Virus record (IMG/VR): IMGVR_UViG_3300020365_000001
Length of the DNA stretch: 64,000 nt
Direction: 5' to 3' (one strand)
Source: a virus
Lineage: Duplodnaviria; Caudoviricetes
Part shown: piece by piece, positions 1 to 64,000 of the stretch
Position numbering within the stretch: the stretch's first letter is position 1
How the letters are laid out: each line of letters opens with the position of its first letter
Translations under genes and position numbers: made by a program
The notes under the pieces: generated by a model
What the model was told of the DNA's origin: nothing
What the model saw: the letters and a program-made list of their open reading frames with translations, nothing else
The model's database searches: none

Positions 1-825
1 AGCAGCCTTGTAGATGGTACGGATGATCTCGCGGTTGATCTCAGCAAGAATCTCAGTGCTGAGGATGTTAGCGAGTTCCGCTTCAGCATCCAGACCGTGG
101 ATCGCCTTCAGGTCCTGAGCAAGCTCAAGGCTGTACTCTGCCTTCAGGGCACGAGACTTAGCAGTCACCGAGACTTTCTCGATGCTGAACGCCATCTCGC
201 GGAAGTCGTTCGAGGCGCTGTCACCCAGTGCTTCAGAAGCTTGAGTGGAGAAACCTTGACCAACGCTGTAAGCATTAGCAGCACCACCGTTGAGAACGGC
301 AGGGTTCGTGCCGCCTTGGGCGGTAGTACCGAAACCAACCGAAGTGCCACCACCGGAGGAACCGGTGTAGTCGCCTTGTGCCAGGGAAGCGTCGCTGTCC
401 TGAGCGGAGAATGCCGAATCAGGCTCGTTGAAGAATGCTTCGGTGCCAGACTGGTTGTCGTAGCGGGAACGCATTGCGAAGATCAGTCCGGTAGGACCGT
501 TCATCGGTTGCACACCAGCGAGGTCATAAGCGACCAGGTTGGGCATTGCACGACGGATCAGGCTGATCAGCACCGGGTCGAAACCGGAGACAGGACCAGC
601 GGCAGCAGCGCCACCACTAAAACCAGCAGCGCCAGTTGAATTGGGGTCGGTGTTGACGGTCGGAGGTGCTTCACTCAGGAATGCACGCTCTTCGCGGAGA
701 AAACGTTCTTGGTTTTCGAGAAGTTGGGCGGTGACCGCCTTCCGGTGGGAGTCCTTGATGTTATCAAGACCCTCTGCCTCCAGGAGGGGTGCCCACTTCT
801 TCTGGAGATTGCCAGAATTGAACAT
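1..825 (-). CDS. gp23: Major capsid protein (5' part; runs off the window start)
   Basis: Not in the ORF track. Manual translation from the ATG at 825 gives MFNSGNLQKKWAPLLEAEGLDNIKDSHRKAVTAQLLENQE..., then LAGVQPMNGPTGLIFAMRS and KSRALKAEYSLELAQDLKAIHGLDAEAELANILSTEILAEINREII, all hallmark T4-like gp23 motifs. It lies downstream of gp22. Confidence 0.97.
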   Translation of the reverse strand, partial: MFNSGNLQKKWAPLLEAEGLDNIKDSHRKAVTAQLLENQERFLREERAFLSEAPPTVNTDPNSTGAAGFSGGAAAAGPVSGFDPVLISLIRRAMPNLVAYDLAGVQPMNGPTGLIFAMRSRYDNQSGTEAFFNEPDSAFSAQDSDASLAQGDYTGSSGGGTSVGFGTTAQGGTNPAVLNGGAANAYSVGQGFSTQASEALGDSASNDFREMAFSIEKVSVTAKSRALKAEYSLELAQDLKAIHGLDAEAELANILSTEILAEINREIIRTIYKAA

Positions 826-863
826 GGGGGGATACCTTTTACTTGTTTAGGTGTTGGTAAATA

Positions 864-1943
864 CTATTGGAACTTAGTTAGTGCGTTGAGATATGCACTC
901 ATTGCCGGAGAATGCTCTTCGACCAGGCTCTCTTCGGAACTAACCTCTTGGGAATCAACCACAGGTTTCGCAGCGAAGTACGACTCCTTCAGTGTGGCAA
1001 GTTTTTCCCGGTATTGTTCTTCACTTTCAAACTCAACACCTTTAGAGAGTTCAGAGAGCTTGTCCTTTTGGGACAGTGCCAGACCTTCACTTACTTCATC
1101 GAGGATGTTGTCTGAAACAGAGTCCGACAGACGCTTAGTCAAAGCGACGTTGCTGTCGATCTGTTCGTTGAGTTTTGTCTCCATTTCATCTAACTTGGAA
1201 GTCATTGCTTCCAAGACATCATATTTATCTTCAGGGATTTCAACATAATGTTCTTCAAAAAGGGTCTTCAGACCCGTCATAAAGGATTCCGAAAGTTCAC
1301 CTCGGATTCCTGATTCGACTTGCAGCGCATTCTCGTTGATCCACTCGTTTGCAACGAACTCTAGGTATGAATCAACACGCTCAGTCAATTCAGTTTTGAA
1401 AGCGGCGATCTCTTGATCGTATGCTTCCTGGAACTGAGTTTCCAGAGTGTCTGCCACCTGATCAATTTTGCTGCGGACAGCAGCTTCAAAGATCGTAGCG
1501 GTCTTTTCTTGGAACTCGGGAGAGAGTTCTTCACCTTCCAGAAGAGCAGCAACATCTTCGGTCACGTCGATCGTGATCTCTGCTTGCTCTTCTTCGGCAA
1601 CTACGGTTTCCGTCTCTTCAACCGGAGCTTCAGCAACAACTTCCTCTTCGGTCTCAACTTCTTCACCGTAACCAGTGCTCTTCAAAGCAGCAGGTCCGGG
1701 CAGTTGCACCTTGCCAGAGGCATTGCGGAAATGAGGATCACCCGTCTGTGCAAGAGTTGCACTAGGTGTCTTCAGTTTGTTACTGTCGTCGGTTGGTTTT
1801 GCGTTGGTAGGAGTAGGTCCGCCGAGGTCCTCAATTGCGCCATTGTCAGGCACATAGTTGGGGGCTTTAGGCATAGGTTCCGCTGATTTGGCACCTTTAG
1901 TAACCTGGTTCTCCATTTCATCTAGATGTTGTTTCGCAGCCAT
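864..1943 (-). CDS. gp22: Prohead core scaffolding protein
   Basis: Acidic coiled coil with 'EFQEKTATIFEAAV', 'VDSYLEFVANEW' and C-terminal 'MSAYLNAL'; between gp21 and gp23. Confidence 0.93.
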   Translation of the reverse strand: MAAKQHLDEMENQVTKGAKSAEPMPKAPNYVPDNGAIEDLGGPTPTNAKPTDDSNKLKTPSATLAQTGDPHFRNASGKVQLPGPAALKSTGYGEEVETEEEVVAEAPVEETETVVAEEEQAEITIDVTEDVAALLEGEELSPEFQEKTATIFEAAVRSKIDQVADTLETQFQEAYDQEIAAFKTELTERVDSYLEFVANEWINENALQVESGIRGELSESFMTGLKTLFEEHYVEIPEDKYDVLEAMTSKLDEMETKLNEQIDSNVALTKRLSDSVSDNILDEVSEGLALSQKDKLSELSKGVEFESEEQYREKLATLKESYFAAKPVVDSQEVSSEESLVEEHSPAMSAYLNALTKFQ

Positions 1944-1989
1944 CGGTTAGCTTCCGTAGTTCCTAGTTATACTGTTATTATTTAGAGAT

Positions 1990-2637
1990 TTATAGATCTG
2001 AAAGGAACTGGGAGAACAAGCGAAGCTTGTGTGCTTCCAGCACTTTTTGATCTACAGCGGTATTTATACTCTCTTTGATCTGCTCGCAGTTCTTTTCGCG
2101 AAGGATACCGCCTTCCCAAACCCACTCTTTTCCTTCCATAATCCCATCTACAAAAGCATCAGGGGCAGAAGGATCAGCAACAATGTCAGCAGCTGTAGCA
2201 AGCATGAAATCTTCGCCGACATAATTTACTCCGTCGCGTTGGGTAATAGAACCCATACCACGAGAAGACACGCCGAGTTTTACCCCTTCGTTGATCAAGG
2301 ACTCAGCAATCTTACCCATGGGGGTAGAAAGAATCTGTGCTTTTCCGACAAAGTTGTTACCCTCTTGAGTGAGAGAAACGATTTTGTGAGAGACCCGATC
2401 TAGATTGATTTGGGGTCCATCGGGGTGACCCAGTTCACCAAGTGCACGACCTTTCGAGGTGAAAGATTCGTTATAACGTTTTACCTCATTGCACATTGTG
2501 GCAAGAGGATAGCAACGCTTATTACGGTTTACGACTTCCGCTTGAAGAAACGGACCTTGAATATAGAGAGTCTTCTTACCGTCTTTTTCTTCGGTAAGAA
2601 TATCAACTGATTCAATTTCCTCAGAAATAAGTTTCAT
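1990..2637 (-). CDS. gp21: Prohead protease
   Basis: Motifs 'NRNKRCYP', 'ALGELGHP', 'GVSSRGMGS' and 'DIVADPSAPDAFV'. Confidence 0.97.
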   Translation of the reverse strand: MKLISEEIESVDILTEEKDGKKTLYIQGPFLQAEVVNRNKRCYPLATMCNEVKRYNESFTSKGRALGELGHPDGPQINLDRVSHKIVSLTQEGNNFVGKAQILSTPMGKIAESLINEGVKLGVSSRGMGSITQRDGVNYVGEDFMLATAADIVADPSAPDAFVDGIMEGKEWVWEGGILREKNCEQIKESINTAVDQKVLEAHKLRLFSQFLSDL

Positions 2638-3200
2638 CCTAGTTGTACCTCGTGAAGATGCATTGTAGAACCATCAGAAGTTTCAGGTGCCATCCGGAAG
2701 ATAACAGACCTAGAAACTGTGGCAGTTCCTGTAAAATCACCGAGACTAGAAGTATCGGCATCTACCGTAATTTTCATACCGTAACCGTTCTGCCGTTGAG
2801 GGGTGGTGACTGCCGTCACTTCCACGTGAGCAATTTCGGTGTTATAACCACCAACCGCAGAACCCGTCATGGTGATATAATCACCAACACGAATCTTGGT
2901 GTCTTGACGATCAAGCGTCAGTACACAAGGGTTTGCTTTAGTTGCACTAGTAACGTTAGCGTTAGCGGGGTGACCGTAACGATAAAGGAAGTCGCGACCC
3001 TTTTCAATATGAAAAGAACCAACGCCTGCTTGAGCAACGGTGTTGCACACAGAAATGTGCCCACTCTTCTTCTCAGAACTACAGGCAACATACAAGATGC
3101 CAGTCTTTACGATCTTTGCATCTGATGCAGCAGTAGTAGCATTCGCACTAGTTAGTTCACCGTGGTCTGCCACCAAATGCAGTGGTTGTGATGCGCTCAT
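2634..3200 (-). CDS. Hypothetical protein, probably virion-associated
   Basis: 188-aa beta-rich ORF translationally coupled between the gp20-side ORF and gp21. Confidence 0.7.
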   Translation of the reverse strand: MSASQPLHLVADHGELTSANATTAASDAKIVKTGILYVACSSEKKSGHISVCNTVAQAGVGSFHIEKGRDFLYRYGHPANANVTSATKANPCVLTLDRQDTKIRVGDYITMTGSAVGGYNTEIAHVEVTAVTTPQRQNGYGMKITVDADTSSLGDFTGTATVSRSVIFRMAPETSDGSTMHLHEVQLG

Positions 3201-3415
3201 TCTTCCTCTTGCGATTCTGGTTCGGGGTCAATAACAGTATCTACCGGTTCATCGACTTCTGGTTCGTTACCAAAAGTTGCTGCTGCCACAGCAGGGGTAA
3301 CCTGCTGGACTTTCTCTGCTGACTTTTGATACAGTAGAGATTTGATAGCATCATGGATTTCAGTCGGTGAACTTTCACCGCTGCCCATCATGTCAAGCAA
3401 TTCATTAGTATCCAT
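3197..3415 (-). CDS. Small acidic prohead core protein (gp67/68 position)
   Basis: 72-aa acidic ORF directly after the portal gene; a late promoter TATAAATA lies upstream. Confidence 0.65.
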   Translation of the reverse strand: MDTNELLDMMGSGESSPTEIHDAIKSLLYQKSAEKVQQVTPAVAAATFGNEPEVDEPVDTVIDPEPESQEEE

Positions 3416-3440
3416 TATAAAATAGTAGAAACGCTAGGGT

Positions 3441-3448
3441 TATTTATA
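3441..3448 (-). promoter_or_regulatory. T4-type late promoter TATAAATA
   Basis: Plus-strand tatttata reads TATAAATA on the minus strand. Variant boxes (NATAAATA or CTAAATA) precede many structural genes, e.g. near 1980, 5125, 8013, 11188, 14873, 16252, 19111, 24176, 33924 and 47418. Confidence 0.75.
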
Positions 3449-9703: not shown

Positions 9704-11164
9704 TCAACACTTCCACTTCCTGAGAGCAAGAGCTTTACGAGTCGGACGCCCCTTCTCATCTTTCATAGGTCCTTTCACACCACTCATACGGGCACAGAAA
9801 GATCTCTTACGAGGACCACCTTCTGGTTGCGGTGCTTTCAGATCTGAACCAGGATTCTCACGCTCATAAGATTTGCGACCCTTCTCGTTCAAACCACCAG
9901 TTTTGCTCTTGCCTTCCTTACGCTGCCATGCAGATTCTCTCTTTAGACCAGGAAACAGAACCTGAGTAGCAATGCTGTTTTGTTTGTTATAAAGTTTATA
10001 TGATGGCATTGATGCTCTTCCACCATGAGCTTTGACGGCATCTACCTTTTTTTGGTTTATAACATTTGAAGTATCTGCGGCATCTTGAGCGATACGAATA
10101 GGATTTGGAACCCCATATGGTTTGCCACCGATGTTCACCGTTGGTCCAAGATAACCATCACCTGGTTTCTCCTGAAGATTCTCACCATCAACTTCAGTTT
10201 CCTGATTCAACATTTGAAGTGCTTTATTCTTGGTATCGGTTGCTCTCCGAATCGCGCCGTATTTGCCTTTACCAGAATCCGCACTTTGTTTGACTGTATT
10301 TGCAGCTTTCATTCCTTGGATTGCTTGCCACGTGGCAAGACCAGCAGCAATCGCACCTGCACCTATAAGACCAGCAGCTTCGGATACTTCACCTGGTTTT
10401 TCTTGACGATTAGATTCTACAATAGGAACAGCGGTTTCGAGATACTGCCTAAAAGTAATACCTTCTTTCCAAGAAGATTTGCCAAATGCAGCGGTAGCAC
10501 CACCGATAGTATCCTTCGCTACTTTCGCTGCCCATCCAAGTGCCTTTGCAGCAACATGCCCTTTCGCTCTAAGTCCCATACCTTTACCTCCCTTCTTCTT
10601 AGGAGTTCCAGGAGGACCTTCTCTCTTAGCAAGAGCACCACCTTTTCCCCGTGTGTCATCTTTTTGACCTGCACCAGAAGGAGGACGCCTGTTACCACTT
10701 GTTCCACCACCTCCAGAACCGCCTGATCCTGAGGAAGACGTAGAACCACCTGCTGAACCAGGAAGTTTTTTCTGTCCAGGAGTTACGTCCCGAACCTTCA
10801 CCTTCTTCACACCCATATCTACTGCCGTGCCCCCAGCAGAAGACACACGCTTGCTACCACCAGAGCCACCAACCTTATTAGACTTATTGCCTTGTGAATC
10901 ACTTTTGACAACACGATCATTCCTAACAATGGCACTAGTACCTAACTTTTTCTGTCCGGATGGTTTTGCCGAACTAGAACTAGCACCACTAGTGGGTTTT
11001 GCCCCTGCCTTAGCAGCACGTGCTTGTGCCTGCTTACGAACTTGTTTTGCCCTTTCCGCAGTACCAGGATTTTTCTTCTGGTAGTCCGCAAACTGGTCGT
11101 CGCTCATCTTGGCAAACGCATCACCAGGTGCCTCAAAGATGGGCAATCTATAGGTATATTTCAT
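9704..11164 (-). CDS. Basic, Gly/Lys-rich hypothetical protein; candidate internal head (poly)protein
   Basis: 486 aa of low-complexity basic segments. The C-terminal module 'AWQRKEGK...GGLNEKGRKSY...RKRSFCARM...ALRKWKC' recurs in cyanophage proteins. A late-type box lies upstream. Confidence 0.7.
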   Translation of the reverse strand: MKYTYRLPIFEAPGDAFAKMSDDQFADYQKKNPGTAERAKQVRKQAQARAAKAGAKPTSGASSSSAKPSGQKKLGTSAIVRNDRVVKSDSQGNKSNKVGGSGGSKRVSSAGGTAVDMGVKKVKVRDVTPGQKKLPGSAGGSTSSSGSGGSGGGGTSGNRRPPSGAGQKDDTRGKGGALAKREGPPGTPKKKGGKGMGLRAKGHVAAKALGWAAKVAKDTIGGATAAFGKSSWKEGITFRQYLETAVPIVESNRQEKPGEVSEAAGLIGAGAIAAGLATWQAIQGMKAANTVKQSADSGKGKYGAIRRATDTKNKALQMLNQETEVDGENLQEKPGDGYLGPTVNIGGKPYGVPNPIRIAQDAADTSNVINQKKVDAVKAHGGRASMPSYKLYNKQNSIATQVLFPGLKRESAWQRKEGKSKTGGLNEKGRKSYERENPGSDLKAPQPEGGPRKRSFCARMSGVKGPMKDEKGRPTRKALALRKWKC

Positions 11165-14875: not shown

Positions 14876-16201
14876 TTATGAACGTCTTACGACAACATCT
14901 AACTCGTCACCTACATCTAGACCGGTTACAGGGTTGATAATTGTGATAGCGGGACTGCCAATAGTCCAATCAGCAGTCTTTTGCAATAATATACCATTCA
15001 GGTATACTTCCATATTATCAGCAGATGTGTCAGAGTTTGATGGGGCAAATGAAGTTTGACCTTGAGCAGCAGTTAGTTGGTCCTCAGCTTGATCTGAACA
15101 GATATCAATTTCATCTCCAACATTAGCGGCTTCTACTAAGACCACAGAAGCAGATGCTTGATAGTCAATATCTTTTCGGAGTCTGACTCCATTTAGAAAA
15201 ACTCTATAGTTCTTAGAAGCAGAAAGGTTGCCAGCAAGAGTAAAGGTTGTTTGATTCTGAGTAGATGTAAAATATTCTTCTTCAAAGGTGTGCCCAAAAT
15301 AAACACTAATCTGTACGTTGTCACCTGCGGTAAGACCATTAGCAAAGGTTACCGTTGAGGGTGCTGATAATTGATAATCATTACTGGCACCTACTCTTTG
15401 TTTGACACCATTGACACTCACCTGCACCGAGAATGCAGTTGCCTGCTGTCCGTCATCAAACACATTGGGAGCAGTGAACGAAGTCTGTCCTTGGGATGCT
15501 TCGATATTAGATACACTCAGTGTGGTAGCGCCACCTACAGCACCTCCTCCACCACCTGACAGTGTTTTGAATGATAAGGAACCATTTCCATCAGTAACAA
15601 GTGCCTGATCTTCACTCCCGTCAGTTGATGGGAATGTAAACCCTGCAATGGTACTAATACCAGTAGAGTTTATGTTGCCAGAAAGACCATGGCCAGTTAT
15701 ATCAATACCAAAACAGGTTACGATTCCTGATAGGTTTGCACCTGCTCCGGTAAGACCTGCATTATGAACAAAAGTATTGCCTACATTATATCCAGTTGAG
15801 TGAACAAATACTCCATTGCCACCAACCTGCAATCCAGTGGTAAGTACTGTTGTACCTGCACCAACATTTATGCTGTCGTCATCGAGGGTTACACTACCGC
15901 TTCCTACGGTTAGAACACCAACAACCCGACCATTTCCTCTAACTAAAAATTGAGTTTGTGCTGCACCAACTACAACAGTCTGGTCTCCGAAAGTACCAAT
16001 ACCAGACGATAGTACGTGCTCAGTTGATATACCAACTTCTCGTACAGTAACACCAGCACCAACACCATCTTGTCCTGCGGCGATAAAGACTTTACCGTCC
16101 GTGGTATTGATTGCAAATTCCCCTAAAGATATTGAATCTGGGTAATGGGGAACCTTACCCGCGATACTAGATCGCTTGACTTTTATTTGAGGAGCTGCCA
16201 T
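14876..16201 (-). CDS. Fibre-like structural protein
   Basis: N-terminal 'IKVKRS...LGEFAINTTDGKVF' typical of phage fibres, and three C-terminal 'QGQTxF...(V/L)NG(V/I)...GD' modules also present in the 1417-aa fibre. Confidence 0.75.
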   Translation of the reverse strand: MAAPQIKVKRSSIAGKVPHYPDSISLGEFAINTTDGKVFIAAGQDGVGAGVTVREVGISTEHVLSSGIGTFGDQTVVVGAAQTQFLVRGNGRVVGVLTVGSGSVTLDDDSINVGAGTTVLTTGLQVGGNGVFVHSTGYNVGNTFVHNAGLTGAGANLSGIVTCFGIDITGHGLSGNINSTGISTIAGFTFPSTDGSEDQALVTDGNGSLSFKTLSGGGGGAVGGATTLSVSNIEASQGQTSFTAPNVFDDGQQATAFSVQVSVNGVKQRVGASNDYQLSAPSTVTFANGLTAGDNVQISVYFGHTFEEEYFTSTQNQTTFTLAGNLSASKNYRVFLNGVRLRKDIDYQASASVVLVEAANVGDEIDICSDQAEDQLTAAQGQTSFAPSNSDTSADNMEVYLNGILLQKTADWTIGSPAITIINPVTGLDVGDELDVVVRRS

Positions 16202-16251
16202 TTATATCGGTGCTATGTAGCATCAATGAGTGGTATATACCACCGTCACAA

Positions 16252-16268
16252 TATTTATGTGTTATAAT
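16252..16268. promoter_or_regulatory. Closely spaced divergent promoters (late box on minus strand, extended -10 on plus strand)
   Basis: CATAAATA on the minus strand (16252-16259) towards the fibre gene; TGtTATAAT on the plus strand (16260-16268) ahead of the ATG at 16291. Confidence 0.5.
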
Positions 16269-16290
16269 TAGTTTGGGATTACGATATTAC

Positions 16291-16959
16291 ATGAAGACTC
16301 TCTGTGTACTTATTGGACCTCAAGGATCGGGCAACCATCTGTGGTCAAAAATCTTCTCGTTACATGAAGAAGTCTTTGGGTGGAAAACGCTGCTCGATAA
16401 TTATTGGGAAGCACACCGATTATCCGAACCCTTCGCAGAGTATTGGAAAGACCCTGATACCTTGCGAACCTTTGATTGGTCTCAAAGTGAATATTTCTTT
16501 ACATCAGTTAGCATCCCCCTCGGCATAAAATCTCAAGGGACCTTACGTTGTCCAAACGTCGTGCAGTTTTGCACTGTCGCCGAGAGTATGGGGATCAATG
16601 TCAAAGTGCTCGTCTTAGGACGAGATAAAAATATTCTAAATCATCAACAGTCACGCATACGTGAGCAAGATACCCTACATTATTTCTTAGATCAATTACC
16701 AAAAATCAAAAACCCAACATATCTTAGTTACGAACTTTTGTATCTTTACAGGAGAGAGTATCTAAAATCATTAGATGTTGGTATTCCTATTGCTTGGTAT
16801 GATCCAAGAGTTCAAAAGATTTTAGAAATTGATGCTAACCAAAAATACATTTCTTATGTAAAATCTAGTCCTCTAGATGATTGCAATAAGACAGGAGTTC
16901 CTTCTAAATGGAACCCCAATAAAACATATGTGGATCTTGATAGAGACCTGTGCTGCTAA
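16291..16959 (+). CDS. P-loop / sulfotransferase-like hypothetical protein (paralog of 17727..18437)
   Basis: The start is more likely the ATG at 16291 (MKTLCVLIGPQGSGNHLWSKIFS). Shares 'GPQGSGNHL', 'EPFAEYW' and 'DAN.KY.S' with 17727..18437. Confidence 0.7.
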   Translation: MKTLCVLIGPQGSGNHLWSKIFSLHEEVFGWKTLLDNYWEAHRLSEPFAEYWKDPDTLRTFDWSQSEYFFTSVSIPLGIKSQGTLRCPNVVQFCTVAESMGINVKVLVLGRDKNILNHQQSRIREQDTLHYFLDQLPKIKNPTYLSYELLYLYRREYLKSLDVGIPIAWYDPRVQKILEIDANQKYISYVKSSPLDDCNKTGVPSKWNPNKTYVDLDRDLCC

Positions 16960-17141
16960 TGGGCAAATATGATTTTGGTGGAAGACCAGTAGAACCTTGT
17001 AACTTGTTACTACTTATTAGTGACATGGAAGGAACCTACCAAAATCTCAAGTATATGGGATTTGGGGAAGATATGAATATCATTGATGAAATGAAAAAGA
17101 AATACTATAAACTCTACTTTCAAAGTCTAAAGAAAAAATGA
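16959..17141 (+). CDS. Small cyanophage-type hypothetical protein
   Basis: TAATG coupling at 16957-16961; MGKYDFGG...LISDMEGTYQNLKYMGF...KKYYKLYF. Confidence 0.7.
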   Translation: MGKYDFGGRPVEPCNLLLLISDMEGTYQNLKYMGFGEDMNIIDEMKKKYYKLYFQSLKKK

Positions 17142-17749
17142 TGTTATTCAGTGGGTGTTCATTTACCTATGGTGCCGAACTAATAGATCGAGATAACGAA
17201 AGATTTTCTTCACATTTTCATTCTCACAACATCGGTGAATGTGGTCTATGTAATGATGCTATTGTTAGAAATACTATATCTGAAATAGAATCAAACCCAG
17301 GAAAATATGATACTGTTGTAGTTCAGTTTACCCTACACACTAGAACCGAGGTTCCTCTTCAAGACGGTTATCTTCCCATCACACCTCAGAATCTAAAACT
17401 TGAATCCCGTAGGGTAAAGCGATGGAAATTTGCAAAAGCAATATACAATAATGAATTGTGGACTATGCATATTGGTAAGGAAAATATGCATAAGAATATA
17501 TTTTTTATGCAGACATTCCTTAGAATGAAAGGATTGAAATATGTATTTCTAAGTATTGACGGACATAATCCAAAACATAATCATTTCACAGACTCGTGTT
17601 GGAAAGATATGATAGATAGTCCAATCATCAATATCCATGATATAATTGGATTTAGATGTGACCATCCACAATATTATGATGGTTACGGGGGTCACCCCAA
17701 TTCACTAGGTCACCGAGTCATCGCTAATGCAATCAAAGAAAGACTATGA
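17138..17749 (+). CDS. SGNH/GDSL-like hydrolase or acyltransferase
   Basis: Block I-like 'SGCSFTYG' and C-terminal 'GGHPNSLGHRVIA'. Confidence 0.7.
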   Translation: MMLFSGCSFTYGAELIDRDNERFSSHFHSHNIGECGLCNDAIVRNTISEIESNPGKYDTVVVQFTLHTRTEVPLQDGYLPITPQNLKLESRRVKRWKFAKAIYNNELWTMHIGKENMHKNIFFMQTFLRMKGLKYVFLSIDGHNPKHNHFTDSCWKDMIDSPIINIHDIIGFRCDHPQYYDGYGGHPNSLGHRVIANAIKERL

Positions 17750-18437
17750 CGGTCCATTGTATGCACCATGGTCTAGTGTAGTAAAAGGAAGGCGACAAAG
17801 AAACAAAAAATTGCTTATCGTTACTGGTCCACAAGGATCTGGTAATCATTTGTTTGCTAGGGTGTTTAGTCAGCATCCAGATGTTATTGGTTGGGAAAAA
17901 CTAAAAACAAATTATTGGGTTCCCTCTGATGAAGAACCCTTTGCTGAGTATTGGGTAAACCCAGACTTGCTAGACTTCCCTGATGGAGATTATTTTCTAG
18001 CAAATGTAAGCGTCCCATTCTTTTATGATGGGGTAAGACAGACACCAAAAATTTCACAGGTATGTCATCAAGCATTGCATCTTGGTGTTCAACCTATCGT
18101 TGCGATCATTACTAGAGATCAAAATATCAACGCTGTCCAACAAAAAAGAGTCGGCGGGGAAGTTACCCTACCGACTGCTATGGAGTATTACAAGCATATT
18201 ATCAATGACGAGTGGATTGAAACTCACTTCTTGTCACATGAATGCTTTTTCCTTTGGGGAGAAAATTATATCAAGTACGTTGCGGAGATGATCAACTTCC
18301 CTGTAACGACCAAAGGCATCGACCAGTATATAACCAGCGATGCCAATGGAAAGTATGTAAGTGCCATCGACCATCACTGGTTAGATGACACTATTAGGGA
18401 AGGTCGCAAACCGTTCAAACAACGGCGAGCGGAGTAG
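17727..18437 (+). CDS. P-loop / sulfotransferase-like hypothetical protein
   Basis: 'LLIVTGPQGSGNHLFARVFS'; paralog of 16291..16959. Confidence 0.7.
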   Translation: MQSKKDYDGPLYAPWSSVVKGRRQRNKKLLIVTGPQGSGNHLFARVFSQHPDVIGWEKLKTNYWVPSDEEPFAEYWVNPDLLDFPDGDYFLANVSVPFFYDGVRQTPKISQVCHQALHLGVQPIVAIITRDQNINAVQQKRVGGEVTLPTAMEYYKHIINDEWIETHFLSHECFFLWGENYIKYVAEMINFPVTTKGIDQYITSDANGKYVSAIDHHWLDDTIREGRKPFKQRRAE

Positions 18438-19089
18438 CGGTGTTCTGGCGGGAGATCTCCAGGAGATCAGAACGCATACGCTCAACCAGAGCGAGAACAC
18501 GGTCTTGCAGTTCAGCACTACCTTCGACCAAACGACTCAGAGCACGACCACCCAGGTTGGAGTGGAAACCTTCGTCTTTGGCGATAGCGGCATAGCGGGA
18601 AGAGATGAAGGTGTCATCAACACATTCTGCCATCTCGTTCCAGACTGCTTCTGCACGACCTTCAGCAACGAGCTGATAGGCAGCGAGGGCAGCGGGATCT
18701 TCAGCAGCTTCATACTTCTCAAGCAGGGAAGCACCCTTTGCCTGAGGCTTGTCTTCTTCAGCAGCAAATGCAGCAGCAACATCCAGTTCTTCACCGGTGA
18801 TGTGCTCGATCACTTCCTTGACCATACGGAAGTGTTTTGCTTCGTCGAGTGCCTGCTTGCTCAGCAGTTCCAGATCACGGACATCCGTGCTTGGGTCGGC
18901 AGAAGCAACTTGACCGGCGATGGCATACATGTTTTGAGCTTCGTTGACCATGCGGCCACGGAAATGCTCAACCAGATACTCATCGCTAGGGGAGGAGGCA
19001 AAGAAACGTCGCACATTCGCACGTGAAGTGGCGAACAGTTCTTTATTACCTTCCTTGATTTTCTTGACAAAATCGGTTCCAGAAAGCAT
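18415..19089 (-). CDS. Ferritin-like diiron-carboxylate protein
   Basis: Paired E...ExxH ligand pattern: 'NEAQN...DEAKHF' and 'AEGRA...DEGFHS'. All-helical character. Confidence 0.8.
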   Translation of the reverse strand: MLSGTDFVKKIKEGNKELFATSRANVRRFFASSPSDEYLVEHFRGRMVNEAQNMYAIAGQVASADPSTDVRDLELLSKQALDEAKHFRMVKEVIEHITGEELDVAAAFAAEEDKPQAKGASLLEKYEAAEDPAALAAYQLVAEGRAEAVWNEMAECVDDTFISSRYAAIAKDEGFHSNLGGRALSRLVEGSAELQDRVLALVERMRSDLLEISRQNTATPLAVV

Positions 19090-19110
19090 TTTTGAATCCT
19101 ATCTACGTTG

Positions 19111-19629
19111 TTATTTAGTGTACCGAAAATAATAACGTAGGTGTCCTTGTGGAGAAAGTTCCTCCTCCAAACACTCTAAGTTATAGTTGTATGTAACGGC
19201 AATACTATTTATTTTTTCTTTTGTCCACTGATACCAAATGATACCTTCGTGATCTGCCCAATCATGAGCAATACCAGGATTTACCCTGAAGATACATTCT
19301 TTCAACCACAACTTATCCAACATCTTGATTTGGGAATCAATAGTTTCCTCATCACCAAAATTGATTGACCCCAGACACAATGCAATATCTGCCGGAGGGA
19401 AATCATAGGCATAGTAATCTTCTAACGACAGATGCAGATGTGCCTCTGAGTTATATGGGTCTATGCCTATTAGACCTGGTATGAGATCGCGAAAACGATT
19501 ATACCCACAACCAACATCTAAAACGCTGGAAGGGTTCTGGGCATTTACGTGTTCAACAACTTGGTATCCGGAGTGCTCATAACCTTCAAAGTTATGGTCT
19601 TTCCAGACACCCCCAAAATAAGATTGCAT
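19111..19629 (-). CDS. Class I SAM-dependent methyltransferase
   Basis: Motif I 'VLDVGCG', followed by 'GIDP' and 'DIALCLGSINF'. Confidence 0.8.
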   Translation of the reverse strand: MQSYFGGVWKDHNFEGYEHSGYQVVEHVNAQNPSSVLDVGCGYNRFRDLIPGLIGIDPYNSEAHLHLSLEDYYAYDFPPADIALCLGSINFGDEETIDSQIKMLDKLWLKECIFRVNPGIAHDWADHEGIIWYQWTKEKINSIAVTYNYNLECLEEELSPQGHLRYYFRYTK

Positions 19630-19820
19630 TATTTTTTGGTGGTCTTTGCAGACCCAGGGTTGGTATCTTGTAATTCTTGGATCTTTTCAACTAATTTCTG
19701 TTGCACCTCAATGAGACTGTTTATCCTTGCCTCATATGCAATACATTTCTGAGTCTCGTCCGTCAAGCGTTTGATATACACTTGCAAGACTGCTGTCAAT
19801 TCTTGCTCTTTTTCACTCAT
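19629..19820 (-). CDS. Small coiled-coil hypothetical protein
   Basis: Likely start at ATG 19820 (MSEKEQELTAVL...); the longer track start falls inside a terminator hairpin. Confidence 0.65.
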   Translation of the reverse strand: MSEKEQELTAVLQVYIKRLTDETQKCIAYEARINSLIEVQQKLVEKIQELQDTNPGSAKTTKK

Positions 19821-19846
19821 AAAAAAAGGGGGAGTCAACTCCCCCT
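19821..19846 (-). terminator. Rho-independent terminator after the long fibre gene
   Basis: Minus strand: GGGGGAGT-TG-ACTCCCCC hairpin followed by TTTTTTT. Confidence 0.75.
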
Positions 19847-19857
19847 ATATAGCAACT

Positions 19858-22800
19858 TTAGAACGATCCTCCATCGATCGTTACGTTCTCCAAGGATCGA
19901 GTTGTGCCAGAACAGGAGATCACCTGTGAAGCGCCAGCACAATCGTTGACGTAGAGAGAACCAACTTCCAATCCAGCGTAGGCACTTGGAGTCAGAACAC
20001 CGGAGTTCTCAGCAGCTTCGCTTGCGAGCACGAAGCGAGCAGCAGAGTCATCCCAGAAGACCGCTGCCTTCTTGGCAGATCCACTGTAGTAGTTCATCAC
20101 CAAACCAACGTCTTTGTTGGTGTCGCTGCTCAGGTTACCGCCGTCAACCTTTTGGAGTTCGAGGAGAGTATCCTCAATCGTGGTGTTGACTGTATTGATC
20201 TGAGTGGTGTTACCGTTGACAACCAAGTCTCCAGTGACGGTCAGATTGCTGGTAGCAGTGATTGAACCGTTGACGGCAAGAGTTGATCCATTGAACGTCA
20301 GGTTAGCACTATCCTCAACAGCACCAGAAGATCCTGCAAGGACGACACGACCAGAAGTTAGGTCAGACACCGTAGCGGAGGACAGAACTGTCTCAGCGCC
20401 TGTGATACTCGCTCCATTGGAACCGTTGATAGCACCACCAACTCCCAGAGTAGAACCGTCCCAGGTCAGGTTAGCATCATCTTCCAAGGTACCGGCACTA
20501 CCCGCAGTTACGATGCGACCGTCAGTCAGGTCGGAGACCGTTGCGGAGGACAGGACGGTTTCGCCACCGGAGATGTTTGCACCGCCGTTTCCGTCAAGTG
20601 CACCGCCGACCGTCAGACCAGCACCCACAGTGGCGGTGGTAGACTTCATGAAGGTATTGGTGGAAATACCCGTTACATTGATTTGAGCGAAGGTTGCTCC
20701 AGACCCACCGCCGAGAACGTAGGACTTCAGGTTGCTGGCAGTCAGTTTGCGGTTGGTTCCGTTAGCACCATCATCCACAAGCAGAAGGTCTGCGTCAGCA
20801 AGACTACTGGTAGCAGTAGCACCATCAATGTCCAGAGCACTTGCAGCGACCTTGTTAGCAGTGCTAATCGTGTTGAGTTTGCTGTCAGCAATAGAACCCG
20901 CCAACTGTGCGTTGGTGATGGTACCAGTCAAACTGGTCGTCGGTAGGTTCGTTGCGTCCTGGAGGTCAAAAGCAGGAGTTGCATCAGCAGCACCAAGATC
21001 AACCTCTACACCACCAAAGGAAACACTATTATTTGCCAACTGTGCATTAGTAATCGTGCCAGTTAGGTTTGTAGTTGCTAGTGCACCGTCAAAGGTAGTA
21101 GCAGTGGCAATGCCGCCGACCGTCAAGTCGGTGACCGTGGTCAGAGAAGTCAGTTCAACAACGTTACCCAGGGACTTCCAACCCACCATCTCCAGTTCAT
21201 CACCAGCGGTGGCAGCGTTAGTAAGAACTGCGGTGCTTCCGTTCGTGGCAGCGTAATCAGTACCAGTTACGAGACGAACACCGTTGAGGTACAGATCAAG
21301 GAATCCTGCTTGGTAACCGGCGTTGAAGGTAAAGGTGGTTTGACCTTGAGTTGCTGTCTTTACCTCTGTAGTAGTAAAGGTGGTAGAAGCAACACCAGTC
21401 AGAACAACGTCAGCAACTCCATCTGCAACGATGAAGTCTTCGAGACCTTGACCTCTAAACTTGAATGCAGTAACAATACCAGCAGAACCAGAGGCACTGG
21501 AAACACCGACCAGGGAAAGCAGACCGCCAGCAGCGTTACGAACGTCGGTTGCAGTAATAACACCACTAGAGACCACGTTACGCAGAGAAGCGTCGCGAGC
21601 AGTCAGTTCTTCGGTAACCGTCAGGTCAGTGCTGACAGTTGCAGCACCCGTGACAGCAAGAGTTGAACCATCAAAGGTCAGGTTTCCGCTGTCTTCCAGT
21701 TCACCACCGGAACCAGCAAGAACCACCCGACCGTCAGTCAGGTCAGAAACAACAGCACTGTTGAGAGTTGCACCACCAGTTACGGTCAGACCAGAAGCGA
21801 TGTTAGCACCGCCGTCAACGTCGAGTGCACCAGTAACAGTTGCACCAGCACCAACCTTCAGGGTCGTGGTGTCGGCAAACGTTACAGTACCAATACCACT
21901 AACACTGATGGCATTGAAGTTAGCACCAGCGCCACCACCAAGGACATATTCCTTGACGCGAGACATTGCCGTCTTGCGGTTAGTGCCGCCAGCACCATCA
22001 TCCACAAGCAGAAGATCTGCATCAACCAGGTCAGCACCAATATCCGTGGCACCGTCAATGTTGACAGAAGCAACGTCAACTACAACAGAACTGCTCAGAG
22101 CAGTTGCACTCAGGATCTCAGTGTTGTTGACCTTGAGGACCTTGCCAGAAGCAAGGTTGATGTTTTCTGATGCACCCCAGTTATCGCCAGTTGCTTCAAA
22201 CTGGAAGGTCTTGTCACCATCACCAGAATCAACTGTGATACCAGCACCATTTGCAGCAGAATCATCAGCAGCACCAGTGGCAACCTGGATGTTCTTATCA
22301 ACAATATTGACGACCGTAGAATTCACAGTCGTAGTGGTGCCATCAACTTGGAGGTCACCAGCAATCACAACCTTACCAGTGTCATCGCCTACAGCAGCAG
22401 GGTCAATGGTAAGGGTTGCTGGACCGGAGATAGTGTCGGAGGTAACACGAATTGCAGAACCTTCAGCACCCGTGTGGAATGCAGTACCATTTACAACACC
22501 ACCTACTGTCAAACCAGAAGCGATGTTAGCGCCACCGTCAACGTCAAGAGCACCAGTAACAGTTGCACCAGCACCAACGGTCAGTGTGGTCGCCTTAGCA
22601 AAGGTTACGGTAGAAATACCAGTAACGTTGATGGCAGCAAAGTTTGCACCTGCACCGCCACCAAGCATGTAATCCTTGAGGTTGCTTGCAGTGACCTTAC
22701 GGTTTGTACCGTTAGCACCGTCATCAACAACCAGCAGGTCAGCATCAACAACACTGGTTGTAGCGGTAGCACCATCAATATCGAGGGCACTCAAGGCAAC

Positions 22801-59278: not shown

Positions 59279-59282
59279 TGAT

Positions 59283-59324: not shown

Positions 59325-59343
59325 CAGATGCTGTGCACGTTTA

Positions 59344-59625: not shown

Positions 59626-59634
59626 AAACTTTCC

Positions 59635-60078: not shown

Positions 60079-60156
60079 TGAAGTTTCTCAACTGTTGATA
60101 CAATACATGAAATAAGTCTCAGTGCACGTTTATTGTGCCACTAAAACTATTGTCAC
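60077..60156 (-). repeat. 80-bp direct repeat copy A (early promoter cassette); partner at 60436-60515
   Basis: 74/80 identical by manual alignment; contains the dyad motif and a TATTGT -10. Confidence 0.92.
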
Positions 60157-60434
60157 TTCACATACTCTAATTTCTTGGCATTTGTCACGGAGAAGTTATT
60201 ATAGTCGCTCATACTTACTGACACGTTATTAGGAAGAACGCTAAAATCTTCCCGTAGTTGCCAGAAACCGTCACCCTGTACGATAACAGCGAAACCGAAA
60301 CATCCTGCCATTGGCATCATATAAAGACCATGCTTTTCTGCTTCTTTTAGACTACAAAACCCGCGAGCAGTTATTGTCCATGTAATGCCAAATTGATCAC
60401 CACCAAAATAAGCACAAACGAATTCAGTAGGCAT
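60153..60434 (-). CDS. Early-region hypothetical protein
   Basis: 93-aa ORF bracketed by the two 80-bp repeats. Confidence 0.7.
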   Translation of the reverse strand: MPTEFVCAYFGGDQFGITWTITARGFCSLKEAEKHGLYMMPMAGCFGFAVIVQGDGFWQLREDFSVLPNNVSVSMSDYNNFSVTNAKKLEYVK

Positions 60435-60435
60435 G

Positions 60436-60515
60436 ATTGAAGTTTCTCAACTGTTGATACAATACATGAAATAAGTTCTAGTGCACGTTTATTGTGACAC
60501 TAGAACTATTGGCAC
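60436..60515 (-). repeat. 80-bp direct repeat copy B
   Basis: Partner of 60077-60156. Confidence 0.92.
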
Positions 60516-60521
60516 ACGGTG

Positions 60522-60659
60522 TTAGTTTGTGACGTAGATGTTCCTCGCATTGGTATACTTTGCTTCCATCAATTTGATGGCGTGATGAATACTCACAGCG
60601 GTGAAACTTTCTTCGATTCGGTAACCCTCAACGAGAGCACTTACGATGAATTGTCTCAT
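60522..60659 (-). CDS. 45-aa early hypothetical protein (not in track)
   Basis: MRQFIVSALVEGYRIEESFTAVSIHHAIKLMEAKYTNARNIYVTN. Confidence 0.6.
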   Translation of the reverse strand: MRQFIVSALVEGYRIEESFTAVSIHHAIKLMEAKYTNARNIYVTN

Positions 60660-60811
60660 TCTAGATCTCCTGGTAAAAACTCTTGAAATTCGTGAAAATA
60701 GTAGTCTTCAGTGATACCGAACTTTTCGCAAAGAAACTTCACTGAATCATAACTTTCCTGATCCATTTCAACAACGAAATGTTCAGTTTCAACGGTGATT
60801 ACATCATTCAT
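60656..60811 (-). CDS. 51-aa early hypothetical protein (not in track)
   Basis: MNDVITVETEHFVVEMDQESYDSVKFLCEKFGITEDYYFHEFQEFLPGDLE; ATGA-coupled. Confidence 0.6.
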   Translation of the reverse strand: MNDVITVETEHFVVEMDQESYDSVKFLCEKFGITEDYYFHEFQEFLPGDLE

Positions 60812-60847
60812 GGTGAAATTTGAGTACAATGACAATATATCAGAGTC

Positions 60848-61471
60848 TTAGATAAATTGTAAGACTCCTGTGACACTTTGCGAAGCGTCTTTCTTACTAA
60901 CTCGTTGTTTTGCTCGTTGATACAATGCTTGATCACTTTCACATCCCCAGTAATGACGACCGAGACGTTTTGCACTCACAGCAGTATCACCATCTCCCAT
61001 GAATATATCAAGCACAGTATCACCAGGGATAGTATATGCGTTGATTAGTAGTTCATCAAGAGATTGACGAGATGTAGATGAATGGACGCAAGTGTAGTGA
61101 TCACTATCATTTTTGTAAGTGAAATCCTTGCCCTTTGAGTAACACCAAGCATGTTGATGTTTGTGTGCAAAGTTCTTCTTACTACGACGACCAGTTCTAC
61201 ACTCAAACACGATCTCATTCTGCTCTGTTAGTTGTTTGTTACGATTCAGAGCATACTTATACACTAAGAACGATTCATTCTTGAGTGTTCCCCACACAAT
61301 CATCATCCCATTGGGTTTCAATACACGCACACATTCTGTGGTCCATTTCATACACCAACTGAGATACTTTTTACCTCCACCAGGTGGAGGTTCAGTGAGG
61401 ACGAGATCAACAGAATTGTCCTTCAATTTACTGAGAAACTGTAAACAATCCTTGTGCTGTAATTTATTCAT
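60848..61471 (-). CDS. Beta-class N6-adenine/N4-cytosine DNA methyltransferase homolog with degenerate catalytic motifs
   Basis: Family layout 'DCLQFL..L.DNSVDLVLT', 'RVLKPNG', 'PGDTVLDIF.G.G.T...A..LGR...G.E'. Motif IV reads EPPP rather than (D/N/S)PPY, and HPTxKP is missing. Confidence 0.8.
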   Translation of the reverse strand: MNKLQHKDCLQFLSKLKDNSVDLVLTEPPPGGGKKYLSWCMKWTTECVRVLKPNGMMIVWGTLKNESFLVYKYALNRNKQLTEQNEIVFECRTGRRSKKNFAHKHQHAWCYSKGKDFTYKNDSDHYTCVHSSTSRQSLDELLINAYTIPGDTVLDIFMGDGDTAVSAKRLGRHYWGCESDQALYQRAKQRVSKKDASQSVTGVLQFI

Positions 61472-61998
61472 AAGTTGGCATACAATGACTTCATGAAGGG
61501 AAAGTCTTGGGGGAATCCATCAAGGAAAAATGTACCTGAGTTCACGGTTTTACCACCATGTTGGTTGTACTTCCAGAACCCATTCTCATCTTGTGCTGAC
61601 ACGAACTCATCAACTTCTTGTTTGGTTGATGAATACATCTCAACACGATCAGGATACATTGCCAGGAAGATAATCACATCATAGTCTTGACTAGTGCGAA
61701 TTTGTTGCCAACGAAACTGATCACCACCACCCCACAACATCGATCCTTTGATTTCACATCGACGACCGTTGATGATACGATCGTATTCACTTTGTTTTGG
61801 ACGAGTAACTGCGAACCCAAGATGTTTGCAGTATTCACTAACAAGTTGCTCAAAGAACTTTCCCTTGCGTTTGCTACTCATTTCTTTGTAGACACGAAAG
61901 GGAGAATCAATGTAGAGATCAGCATCACGATCATTCAATGCATCATCGTGAGTCTGATAACTTTCAATGAACTGAGCAGGAATCGTGGTGTCAATCAT
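61468..61998 (-). CDS. PD-(D/E)XK restriction-endonuclease-like protein
   Basis: 'KGKFFEQLV...EYDRIINGRRCEIKGS...FRWQQIR...YD' fits the E...D...ExK core; ATGA-coupled to the MTase homolog. Confidence 0.7.
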   Translation of the reverse strand: MIDTTIPAQFIESYQTHDDALNDRDADLYIDSPFRVYKEMSSKRKGKFFEQLVSEYCKHLGFAVTRPKQSEYDRIINGRRCEIKGSMLWGGGDQFRWQQIRTSQDYDVIIFLAMYPDRVEMYSSTKQEVDEFVSAQDENGFWKYNQHGGKTVNSGTFFLDGFPQDFPFMKSLYANL

Positions 61999-62018
61999 GA
62001 TACTTTACTTAGGAATGT

Positions 62019-62351
62019 TCAGGACAGATCGATAACACCTGTTTTTTCGTCATTTCTAAACGGGAAAGCGACCGTGGCACCCTTACCCGTTTCCTTGGAC
62101 GAAAATTCTTGTTTGTGCAGTGGCACCACCACACTATTCCATGCTTTGATGTGAGAATTTTCCAGTTTTTGTTGCATATACGATGCAACACCTTCAATGC
62201 ACATGGCAGAGTTCAGAATTTCATCTGAATCACACTCATCACACAGTTTTTCGTTCAATTCGTGAAGCATTTGCTCAACGATCTTCAGTTGTGTGATGAC
62301 TTCATCCACGTCATTCATCACGGTCCACACCTGTTCGTAATCTAATGACAT
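62019..62351 (-). CDS. Early-region hypothetical protein
   Basis: Likely start at ATG 62351 (MSLDYEQVWTVMND...); the track start lies inside the terminator. Confidence 0.7.
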   Translation of the reverse strand: MSLDYEQVWTVMNDVDEVITQLKIVEQMLHELNEKLCDECDSDEILNSAMCIEGVASYMQQKLENSHIKAWNSVVVPLHKQEFSSKETGKGATVAFPFRNDEKTGVIDLS

Positions 62352-62370
62352 GATAAAGATAAAATAAGAG

Positions 62371-62399
62371 AAAAAAAATGCCACCGGTGTGGTGGCATT
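62371..62399 (-). terminator. Rho-independent terminator
   Basis: Minus strand AATGCCACC-ACACC-GGTGGCATT-TTTTTT. Confidence 0.8.
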
Positions 62400-62420
62400 A
62401 TGAACCTGATCAGAGAGTGA

Positions 62421-62642
62421 TCAGACAGCAACCTGCTGGAGGTTGCCCTCACGGCGGTACTTAGCAATCAGGCGACCAACCGACTCGCCTTTGGCGATGG
62501 TGGTCTCAAGGTCGGAGCGAAGGACGGAAGCATCCTTAGCAACGAAGTCATAAGCGGTGTCCTTAGAGGTGAACTGGACAGACACAGCGTTGTCGGTACC
62601 GAAGTCGATAGCAGCGATTGCGGAAGAACCAGTGATGTTCAT
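62421..62642 (-). CDS. Small KTSC-like hypothetical protein
   Basis: 'SSAIAAIDF...VSVQF....Y.F...GESVGRLI' resembles the KTSC pattern; it has its own promoter and terminator. Confidence 0.55.
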   Translation of the reverse strand: MNITGSSAIAAIDFGTDNAVSVQFTSKDTAYDFVAKDASVLRSDLETTIAKGESVGRLIAKYRREGNLQQVAV

Positions 62643-62716
62643 GATGAAAAAGTGAAATGTAAGTTGGAGCAGTGACGATCTTTTGGTGGGGCGGCGTCTC
62701 TCCCCTTGTTGTCCTA

Positions 62717-62774
62717 ATTATAGCGCCTGATCAACCTGGCGCTCTTGGATGGGTGACAGTTCGTCATCTGGCAC
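62717..62774 (-). promoter_or_regulatory. Early promoter: dyad, stem-loop and TATAAT
   Basis: Minus strand GTGCCAG-N8-CTGTCAC, an AGCGCC...GGCGCT hairpin, then TATAAT. Confidence 0.7.
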
Positions 62775-62954
62775 ATCCTCGTTGACTCCAATCATGGATT
62801 CGTAGTAGGTGTCATAGTCGATGCCGATGTAGCGGGCGAGTTCTTCGTAGTCATTGTGACAGCGCAGTTCTCGTTGCAGTGCAAGGTAATCGGAGAGATC
62901 CATGGAAGCAATGAGGCAGACAGTAATCTTAGCACGGGTTGAGACATTTCTCAA
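62718..62954 (-). CDS. Early-region hypothetical protein
   Basis: The start is probably the internal MDLSDY; the C-terminus overlaps the promoter dyad. Confidence 0.55.
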   Translation of the reverse strand: MRNVSTRAKITVCLIASMDLSDYLALQRELRCHNDYEELARYIGIDYDTYYESMIGVNEDVPDDELSPIQERQVDQAL

Positions 62955-62995
62955 CCCTTATTCTGTTTGCCTCATAACACTGAGGCGTATGTTAT

Positions 62996-64000
62996 TTAGA
63001 TAGACTCATCTTCAACAATGTCCACATGTTCATCCAGTTTAGTATACAACTGCATGAATGACAGTTTGGTATCATCATCGAAACGATTCAAGCACATTTC
63101 GATTGCTTTCATCTTGTCACCAAAGATGCTATATGCTCGCACAATATGCACCAGGCGACGAGTTGAAATAATTTCATCGATGCCACCATCATTGAATGTT
63201 TTGCGTACAATGTCTGCCCAATCTACAAGATGCTTGTAGAAGTCAGTATGATCACCAGTAGCAGGAATGTTGAGAGATTCAGCAACATTAGCGAGAATCT
63301 TCTTCTCTACTGCTGGTGTTGGATACTGTTGCTCGAAGGTGATAGGGAATCGCTCAAGAAATGCTTCATTGAGAACATTTGTGCCAATGAATCGTCCATC
63401 ATCAGAACCCTTACCTTTTGTGTTGGCAGTAGCAACAACATTGAAACCAGGTGCTGGTTTGATATGTTCACCGATCTTCTTCAGGAAGACACCATTACCT
63501 TCGAGAATAGATTGCAGGCACAAAATCTTATTTGATGCCAGGTCAATCTCATCTAGCAGCAACAATGCTCCACGTTCCATTGCATCAACAACAGGACCAT
63601 TATGCCAGACAGTCTCACCATTTACCAGGCGGAAACCACCGATAAGATCATCTTCATCCGTCTCAATAGTGATATTCACACGGATACATTCTCTGCCAAG
63701 TTGTGCACATGCTTGCTCAACACCAAATGTTTTACCATTACCAGACATGCCAGTAATAAACACTGGATAGAACTGGTGAGATTGAACAACTTTCTTCAGG
63801 TCAGTAAATCCACCAAAGGTAACAAAAGTATTATCTTTGGTAGGAATCAGCGACTCTTTAGTTTTAGTCTGAACTGGTGTCTCTTTTACATCATACTGAA
63901 CACTACCATCAGGATTAGCGGTAGATGTTAGAGTCCACTGCCCTCGCTTGGTTTTATACTTGTTCAGATACTTGGTGAGTGTCTGATAACCAACGTCATG
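62996..64000 (-). CDS. cobS: CobS-like (MoxR-type) AAA+ ATPase, 5'-truncated by the window end
   Basis: Walker A 'GMSGNGKT', 'ITIETDEDDLIGGFRL', Walker B 'LLLDEID' and 'NEAFLERF'. The frame stays open to 64000 (HDVGYQTLTKYLNKYKTKRGQWTL), matching the cyanophage CobS N-terminus. Confidence 0.92.
   Translation of the reverse strand, partial: HDVGYQTLTKYLNKYKTKRGQWTLTSTANPDGSVQYDVKETPVQTKTKESLIPTKDNTFVTFGGFTDLKKVVQSHQFYPVFITGMSGNGKTFGVEQACAQLGRECIRVNITIETDEDDLIGGFRLVNGETVWHNGPVVDAMERGALLLLDEIDLASNKILCLQSILEGNGVFLKKIGEHIKPAPGFNVVATANTKGKGSDDGRFIGTNVLNEAFLERFPITFEQQYPTPAVEKKILANVAESLNIPATGDHTDFYKHLVDWADIVRKTFNDGGIDEIISTRRLVHIVRAYSIFGDKMKAIEMCLNRFDDDTKLSFMQLYTKLDEHVDIVEDESI

Follow-up and report, generated by a model that had tools for sequence, protein, structure and literature searches.

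Complete absence of TTAA from a T4-like cyanomyovirus lineage and a proposed phage-encoded restriction nuclease with a degenerate methylase partner

In known cases of restriction-site avoidance by phages, such as that of Staphylococcus phage K, which is without GATC, a short palindrome has been removed fully or almost fully from a large lytic genome by synonymous changes, with a site-specific nuclease of the host as the selector. Chloroviruses carry small type II enzymes of their own that are able to degrade host DNA early (R.CviAII with M.CviAII, and CviJI) and protect themselves by methylation, and phage T4 degrades host DNA with EndoII and EndoIV and protects its own DNA with hydroxymethylcytosine. 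Cyanomyophages, to our knowledge, are without the modified bases of T4, and how their own DNA is told apart from that of the host is unexplained. We analyzed a 64,000-nt stretch of viral DNA (IMG/VR record IMGVR_UViG_3300020365_000001), referred to here at its full length as the window, from which the tetranucleotide TTAA is missing entirely, together with a pair of adjacent genes near its end that encode a PD-(D/E)XK nuclease and the degenerate relic of a DNA methyltransferase (methylase). Cyanomyophages break down the chromosomes of their hosts and replicate at their expense (PMC6708340), host-genome breakdown as a source of nucleotides is reported to be common among cyanophages, and host-driven avoidance of restriction sites in phages has been surveyed (PMC6286503).

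The window resembles the site-avoiding phages in the near or full removal of a short palindrome from a large lytic genome by synonymous changes, but the best-supported agent of selection is here the phage's own gene and not a host nuclease. As in chloroviruses, relatives of the window phage carry an adjacent nuclease and methylase pair; unlike chloroviruses, the window lineage has lost the methylase, and its protection would consist in having no sites. Like T4, this T4-like phage would set its own DNA apart so that nucleases hit only that of the host, a role that we infer, but it would apparently do so by sequence content alone rather than by a modified base, and the enzymes of the two phages are not homologous. 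Site avoidance and virus-encoded restriction-modification are thus each known, and what would be new is site absence as the sole protection after decay of the methylase; the literature that we searched held no earlier description of a phage nuclease against which the phage is protected solely by site absence through decay of its own methylase. We consider it likely that a phage restriction-modification cassette became restriction-only in this lineage and that self-immunity now rests on the absence of sites. The features concerned are the following.

1..64000, no strand: TTAA-free DNA, the structural and adjacent early-gene region of a T4-like cyanomyovirus, with 56 open reading frames (ORFs) and 91.5% coding
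61468..61998, minus strand: PD-(D/E)XK nuclease of 176 amino acids (phrog_6927), proposed as a phage-encoded TTAA-specific type IIP-like restriction endonuclease
60848..61471, minus strand: N6_N4 (beta-class) DNA methyltransferase relic of 207 amino acids (Pfam PF01555, 96 bits)

An exact count found no TTAA across the 64,000 bases, where a second-order Markov model predicts 175.7 copies (TTA 802, TAA 766, TA 3496) and base composition (56.2% A+T, 43.8% GC) predicts 398. The first-pass annotation, which had proposed from a reading of the letters that the word was missing from the entire window, was borne out by this count. When all 4-mers were counted, as the same annotation had called for, TTAA was the only one with zero copies and stood far below its Markov expectation. 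The absence extended to the 5.5 kb of non-coding DNA (0 compared to 40 expected) and to each of the eight most AT-rich 2-kb stretches (0 compared to 17–19 expected in each). The gene ends quoted as sidestepping the word, TTC-TAA at 19858 and 48473 and CTA-TAA at 1990, were all correct. A further statement, that similar and other palindromic words are common, held for AATT (258 copies), ATAT (281), TATA (206), GATC (345) and CCGG (109) but not for AGCT (32 compared to 144 expected) or GCGC (40 compared to 70), both of which were depleted.

Codon context across the 56 ORFs revealed how the word is avoided. The leucine codon TTA occurred in 0 of 416 cases before codons starting with A and was used 97 times elsewhere, codons ending in TT (Phe, Ile, Val, Leu) occurred in 0 of 574 cases before AAN and made up around 50% of their families elsewhere, and TAA stops after a T-ending codon numbered 0 of 24. 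The avoidance is one of context-dependent synonymous codon choice, reflecting selection on the DNA and neither selection on the protein nor mutation bias. The words one mutation away (TTAG, TTAC, TTAT, CTAA, GTAA, ATAA) were mostly over-represented in the window rather than depleted, and with 176 sites expected the probability of finding none by chance is about e^-176. Mutational bias and chance, like an assembly or sequencing artefact, are refuted by the counts and carry next to no weight as explanations, and we found no point in favor of any of them.

Matches to portal, sheath, prohead protease, large terminase and CobS assign the window to a T4-like cyanomyovirus, and it also encodes scaffold and neck proteins. 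Its portal protein is closest, among named relatives, to that of a marine single-cell virus contig (80%), followed by that of Synechococcus phage DSL-LC02 (74%). Marine Synechococcus is most likely the host, because the psbA of a complete relative is 92–95% identical to psbA of marine Synechococcus and Cyanobium. TTAA was absent from every contig of the same lineage recovered from independent metagenomes (L001–L003, L081–L086 and L088; 4.6–20.5 kb each), which excludes an assembly artefact. It was also absent from two larger relatives, G001 (111,966 bp; 321 expected by the Markov model), which is 98.5% identical to window positions 10389–64000 and extends 51 kb beyond the window end, and G003 (192,351 bp, CheckV 100% complete; 693 expected). 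The zero was reproduced in cultured isolates sequenced by different groups, the phages S-ShM2 (0 compared to 586 expected) and S-RIM14 (0 compared to 588), each of 180 kb.

The absence of TTAA is actively maintained, since the zero-TTAA lineages have diverged at synonymous sites of their nuclease genes to a dS of ~0.5 to >1 and hold thousands of words a single mutation away from TTAA (4,001 in the window, 7,145 in G001 and 13,996 in G003), and none has regained a site.

The nuclease has the hallmarks of a restriction enzyme. The residues D73, E82 and K84 of the D...ExK motif are invariant in 23 nuclease homologues, as are E50, Q99, R101 and N145–G149. The AlphaFold2 model had a predicted local distance difference test (pLDDT) score of 94.2, and its top Foldseek matches in the PDB were I-Ssp6803I, NhoI, EcoRV and PvuII (E 2e-4 to 1e-2). 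With the type IIP enzymes EcoRV and PvuII and the homing endonuclease I-Ssp6803I it shares the PD-(D/E)XK motif, the core fold, a small size and a predicted symmetric homodimer, but it has no detectable sequence similarity to them. The homodimer model reached an ipSAE interface score of 0.77 compared to 0.00 for the best control, with at least 83% of contacts shared between runs and a partner pLDDT of at least 89; in calibration this mark was reached by 20 of 30 solved homodimers and by one of 23 monomers. The protein is thus predicted to be a probable homodimer. The ratio of nonsynonymous to synonymous divergence (dN/dS) was 0.07–0.26, indicating purifying selection. Because of the invariant motif, the confident model and its fold matches, the homodimer model and the low dN/dS, the nuclease looks like an active restriction enzyme. 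Its putative site, TTAA, is that of R.MseI and Tru9I, and the name R.MseI was not found among the 120 nuclease homologues listed. A search of the Atlas with the nuclease returned viral clusters, the nearest named being a Bsp6I-like endonuclease of giant viruses, which is a weak lead, and genome contigs scanned with an alignment of the nuclease family yielded no relative from bacteria or archaea. Some nuclease homologues are 276 amino acids long, with an N-terminal extension of ~100 amino acids (e.g., P0031, L087 10001–10831).

One further ORF lies directly upstream of the nuclease.

62019..62384, minus strand: small ORF of 121 amino acids from the first GTG (~110 from ATG), phrog_7295

A terminator-like hairpin (62399–62377) precedes it, and this ORF may be co-transcribed with the nuclease. 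A promoter and terminator scan around the nuclease gave nothing above the shuffled background.

The start of the methylase relic overlaps the stop of the nuclease by four bases (ATGA). Aligned to its intact orthologues, to which it is 40–42% identical (e.g., the 264-amino acid P0123 of L087), the relic was altered at every catalytic motif. Motif IV reads EPPP (EPPS in L089) compared to DPPY in all intact orthologues, VHSSTS replaces the WHPTxK block and FMGDGDT replaces FxGSGST of motif I, so that none of these three beta-class elements is preserved, and overall homology is kept. Deletions of 14 and ~40 amino acids include the target-recognition region. Judged by these motifs the window methylase is catalytically dead, and for that reason the DNA of the window is unlikely to be TTAA-methylated. 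The relic had a dN/dS of 0.18 between the window and L089 (at a dS of 0.44), indicating purifying selection, which suggests that it may retain a non-catalytic or new role. In G003 the relic has been cleanly deleted and no N6_N4 methylase is found anywhere in the genome. Most nuclease-bearing relatives have an intact DPPY methylase directly downstream of the nuclease, a place that is taken in the window only by the degenerate relic. A second N6_N4 methylase (288 amino acids, SPPY; L087 11622–12488) follows the first in L087, L094, L095 and L100–L103. A tie of this methylase to TTAA was rejected, as S-SSM4 has a methylase of this P0124 type (66% identity) and normal TTAA, and it probably serves another specificity.

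The same two genes could also be read as those of a cassette that was once TTAA-specific, with a window nuclease that is now inactive or repurposed and a missing TTAA that is an unenforced leftover. The clear degeneration of the methylase partner fits this reading, as does the RNA-library signal for the region, which consisted of short contigs only. In marine RNA libraries one contig of 167 bases lay on the nuclease at a depth of 2.4, others lay on the relic and on upstream ORFs, and short pieces of 62090–62566 were present; DNA carry-over is possible for all of these and they were not counted as transcription. A nuclease that no longer cuts TTAA is nevertheless very unlikely, since its catalytic residues are invariant and under purifying selection, and since lineages this far diverged regained no site in 112–192 kb.

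Gene content and TTAA were compared across 51 loci with a nuclease homologue (44 from IMG/VR and seven from assemblies), 80 control loci anchored on the neighboring cobS and whole genomes of cultured phages. Three states were apparent across more than 60 phage loci and genomes. In the first, the nuclease stands without an intact methylase and TTAA is zero or nearly so. TTAA was zero in the window clade and at every locus with a degenerate methylase, and also at the loci L090, L092 and L125, which have the nuclease and no methylase. Nuclease-only contigs gave the same picture (0 compared to 95 expected in G408; 2 compared to 219 in G006, both sites within the last 240 bases of the contig), as did the nuclease-only locus L123 (2 compared to 54), and the zero-TTAA phages S-ShM2 and S-RIM14 have the nuclease and no N6_N4 methylase. 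The nuclease-only locus L130 had no TTAA (2 compared to 34 in its contig, G409); the reading that it is free of any methylase was rejected, as a fragment of an unrelated Eco57I-like methylase adjoins its nuclease.

In the second state the nuclease is accompanied by an intact DPPY methylase, and every such locus had at least one TTAA, at depleted levels with observed/expected ratios (O/E) of 0.01–0.9. The contig G410 had 114 sites compared to 574 expected. In S-BM3, where the nuclease and an orthologous methylase (67% identical to P0123) are not linked, there were 76 compared to 552. The loci L173, L147 and L148, with a methylase only and depleted TTAA, were considered as a contradiction and rejected, L173 being S-BM3-like (94% nucleotide identity) and the S-BM3 nuclease sitting 82 kb from its methylase. 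In L087, 28 of the 29 remaining TTAA sites lie in two flanking blocks (1–1949 and 15989–20732) and one lies in the 14 kb between; such clustering would fit a recent uptake of outside DNA into an otherwise purged genome.

In the third state, that of phages without the nuclease, TTAA is normal. None of the 80 CobS-anchored controls had a nuclease within the stretches covered, and TTAA O/E was 0.55–1.07 in 75 of them, the other five being three loci of the S-BM3 type and two fragments with no TTAA. In the complete genomes of nine cultured cyanomyophages that lack the nuclease (S-SM2, S-SKS1, DSL-LC02, S-CAM9, S-T4, Bellamy, S-SCSM1, S-8S53 and Sf-CH5) the O/E was 0.82–0.90. Two unbiased tests were made. 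When nuclease-positive loci were set against nuclease-negative ones, TTAA showed the largest difference among the 136 strand-symmetric 4-mers (median log2 O/E -3.21 compared to -0.21; p = 5e-13). The nuclease was the only one of 220 G003 ORFs matched in 7 of 7 depleted and 0 of 9 normal genomes (E <= 1e-15). In the nuclease tree the zero-TTAA window clade is nested inside methylase-bearing, depleted sisters, and besides the window/G003 clade the nuclease stands alone in three or four more lineages at least, which are separate from one another and differ in genomic context (G408, G006 and S-ShM2 among them). The comparison of relatives with and without the gene pair, which the first-pass annotation had called for, therefore separated carriers without an intact methylase, carriers with one and non-carriers. 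Its proposal of a TTAA-cutting nuclease acting on unmethylated phage DNA is supported by this three-way association and by the degenerate methylase. We infer TTAA cleavage and the specificity of the nuclease from the way in which gene presence, the state of the methylase and the TTAA count go together.

A cause unrelated to restriction would be one in which a mobile element inserts at TTAA or the phage machinery for replication, packaging or transcription reads the word as a signal. Transposons that target TTAA are known from other systems, but the window is without a transposase or repeated element, an exact zero over 190 kb is rarely produced by such pressures, and they would not predict a TTAA count that varies with the condition of a DNA methylase. 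Such a cause is highly improbable.

TTAA is not the only word that the window avoids. The RGCY words were 4- to 13-fold depleted (observed/expected AGCC 9/119, GGCC 11/64, GGCT 17/78 and the above-mentioned AGCT). RGCY is the recognition site of CviJI. Most cyanomyophage loci showed this depletion as well, whether or not they carry the TTAA nuclease, and RGCY was normal in Synechococcus host DNA. Among 6-bp palindromes that do not contain TTAA, low counts compared to the Markov expectation were found for CTGCAG (0/13.8), CAATTG (3/17.2), TTCGAA (0/6.5), GACGTC (0/6.4) and GTCGAC (0/5.7). Other 4-mers are missing from other cyanomyophages, namely CTAG from S-SM2 (291 expected), GGTC and GACC from DSL-LC02 (191 and 263), TCGA and CCGG from S-SSM4 (330 and 133), CCGG from S-SCSM1 (101), S-BM3 (92) and G006 (50), and GCGC from G410 (43). 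A single CCGG is present in S-ShM2 and in S-RIM14 (123 expected).

The selecting nuclease could also belong to the host. Avoidance would then be driven by an MseI-like system in the natural picocyanobacterial hosts, with the phage methylase as a counter-defence and the phage nuclease as a passenger of other role or specificity. Host restriction-modification is an established cause of site avoidance in other phages (PMC6286503), and the avoidance by the window of RGCY and several 6-bp palindromes, together with the loss of other palindromes from other cyanomyophages without a known phage nuclease, is in keeping with an agent of this kind. The host genomes searched, a comparison that the first-pass annotation had suggested, showed no matching system. 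No nuclease homologue was found in the 401 Cyanobiaceae genomes searched, although the same profile finds the nuclease in phage records, and no close methylase homologue was found in them, the best match being 36% identical. In fifteen host-like stretches of 11–21 kb TTAA was not avoided (O/E 0.8–2.9, or 0.8–1.5 where at least five sites were expected) and RGCY was normal, and Synechococcus-like stretches had about 0.4–2 TTAA sites per kb. TTAA-rich phages (630–1,370 sites) grow on WH8102 (S-8S53, Sf-CH5) and on WH7803 (S-SKS1, S-T4, S-SCSM1), strains that also yielded S-ShM2 and S-BM3. A host-driven origin would further leave unexplained why TTAA depletion goes with one gene only, the nuclease, and why this gene remains under purifying selection after the loss of the methylase. 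The selecting nuclease most likely belongs to the phage itself, a host TTAA enzyme, for instance a non-homologous one, is possible and neither needed nor supported, and we regard host-driven avoidance as unlikely.

Several points weigh against a phage-encoded TTAA nuclease as the selecting agent, some of which would equally favor the host. Strong TTAA depletion is also found in phages whose methylase is intact, which needs an extra assumption such as methylation that lags behind replication. The locus L133 (1–6999), whose CobS is 82% identical to that of the window, had no TTAA compared to 24 expected and no nuclease homologue in the syntenic slot within the 3 kb downstream, and is the one possible exception to the nuclease rule. 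ACG-2014f and S-SSM4 carry more distant nuclease homologues and have normal TTAA. The natural hosts are far more diverse than two laboratory strains, and an outside agent is possible, as many cyanomyophages lack other 4-mers (CTAG, CCGG, TCGA, GCGC). With regard to the protein, the fold similarity of the nuclease model is only moderate (template modelling score, TM, 0.4–0.5), and Pfam, NCBIfam and PDB sequence searches with the nuclease gave no match. Finally, the specificity is read from an association among related phages that share ancestry.

A restriction-only phage cassette, the explanation that we favor, would have arisen in steps. The ancestral phage-borne cassette would have consisted of the nuclease followed by the DPPY N6_N4 methylase, with the second methylase in some relatives. 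Under a TTAA restriction-modification cassette of this kind, phage DNA that has just been replicated would be open to attack by the phage's own nuclease, and TTAA sites would be purged over time, with lineages that keep the methylase tolerating TTAA while the purge proceeds. Once the purge was complete in the window lineage the methylase would have become dispensable, leading to its decay in the window or its deletion in G003. With the nuclease alone and active in vivo, any new TTAA in the phage genome would be cut and the mutant lost, which would account for the lack of even a single site, be it in coding, non-coding or island DNA. The nuclease would be kept under purifying selection because it cuts the TTAA-bearing DNA of competitor phages and the unprotected DNA of the host, which in Synechococcus has about one site every 0.7–2.6 kb, and spares its own genome.

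We give about even odds to the wider idea that cyanomyophages commonly carry solitary restriction-type nucleases with complete absence of sites as the sole self-immunity, reached by a one-way path from cassette to site purge to methylase decay, which would be the long-sought means of shredding host and rival DNA with unmodified DNA of their own and would make TTAA one case of a general habit. If the restriction-only cassette proposed here is real, a restriction enzyme carried by the phage, with immunity that resides in the word content of the genome, would answer, for the window lineage, the question of how phage and host DNA are distinguished, and would be a discrimination between self and non-self without a modification enzyme. 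It can be put to a direct test, as each of the three states is represented in culture: the nuclease alone with zero TTAA in S-ShM2 and S-RIM14, nuclease and methylase with 76 TTAA in S-BM3, and neither gene in many isolates from the same hosts. The nuclease family may supply new small TTAA-specific enzymes together with a cognate methylase. For the phages themselves, such a nuclease would form a barrier to recombination and gene uptake in which only TTAA-free DNA could be acquired, and it would in this way shape cyanophage gene flow in the ocean.

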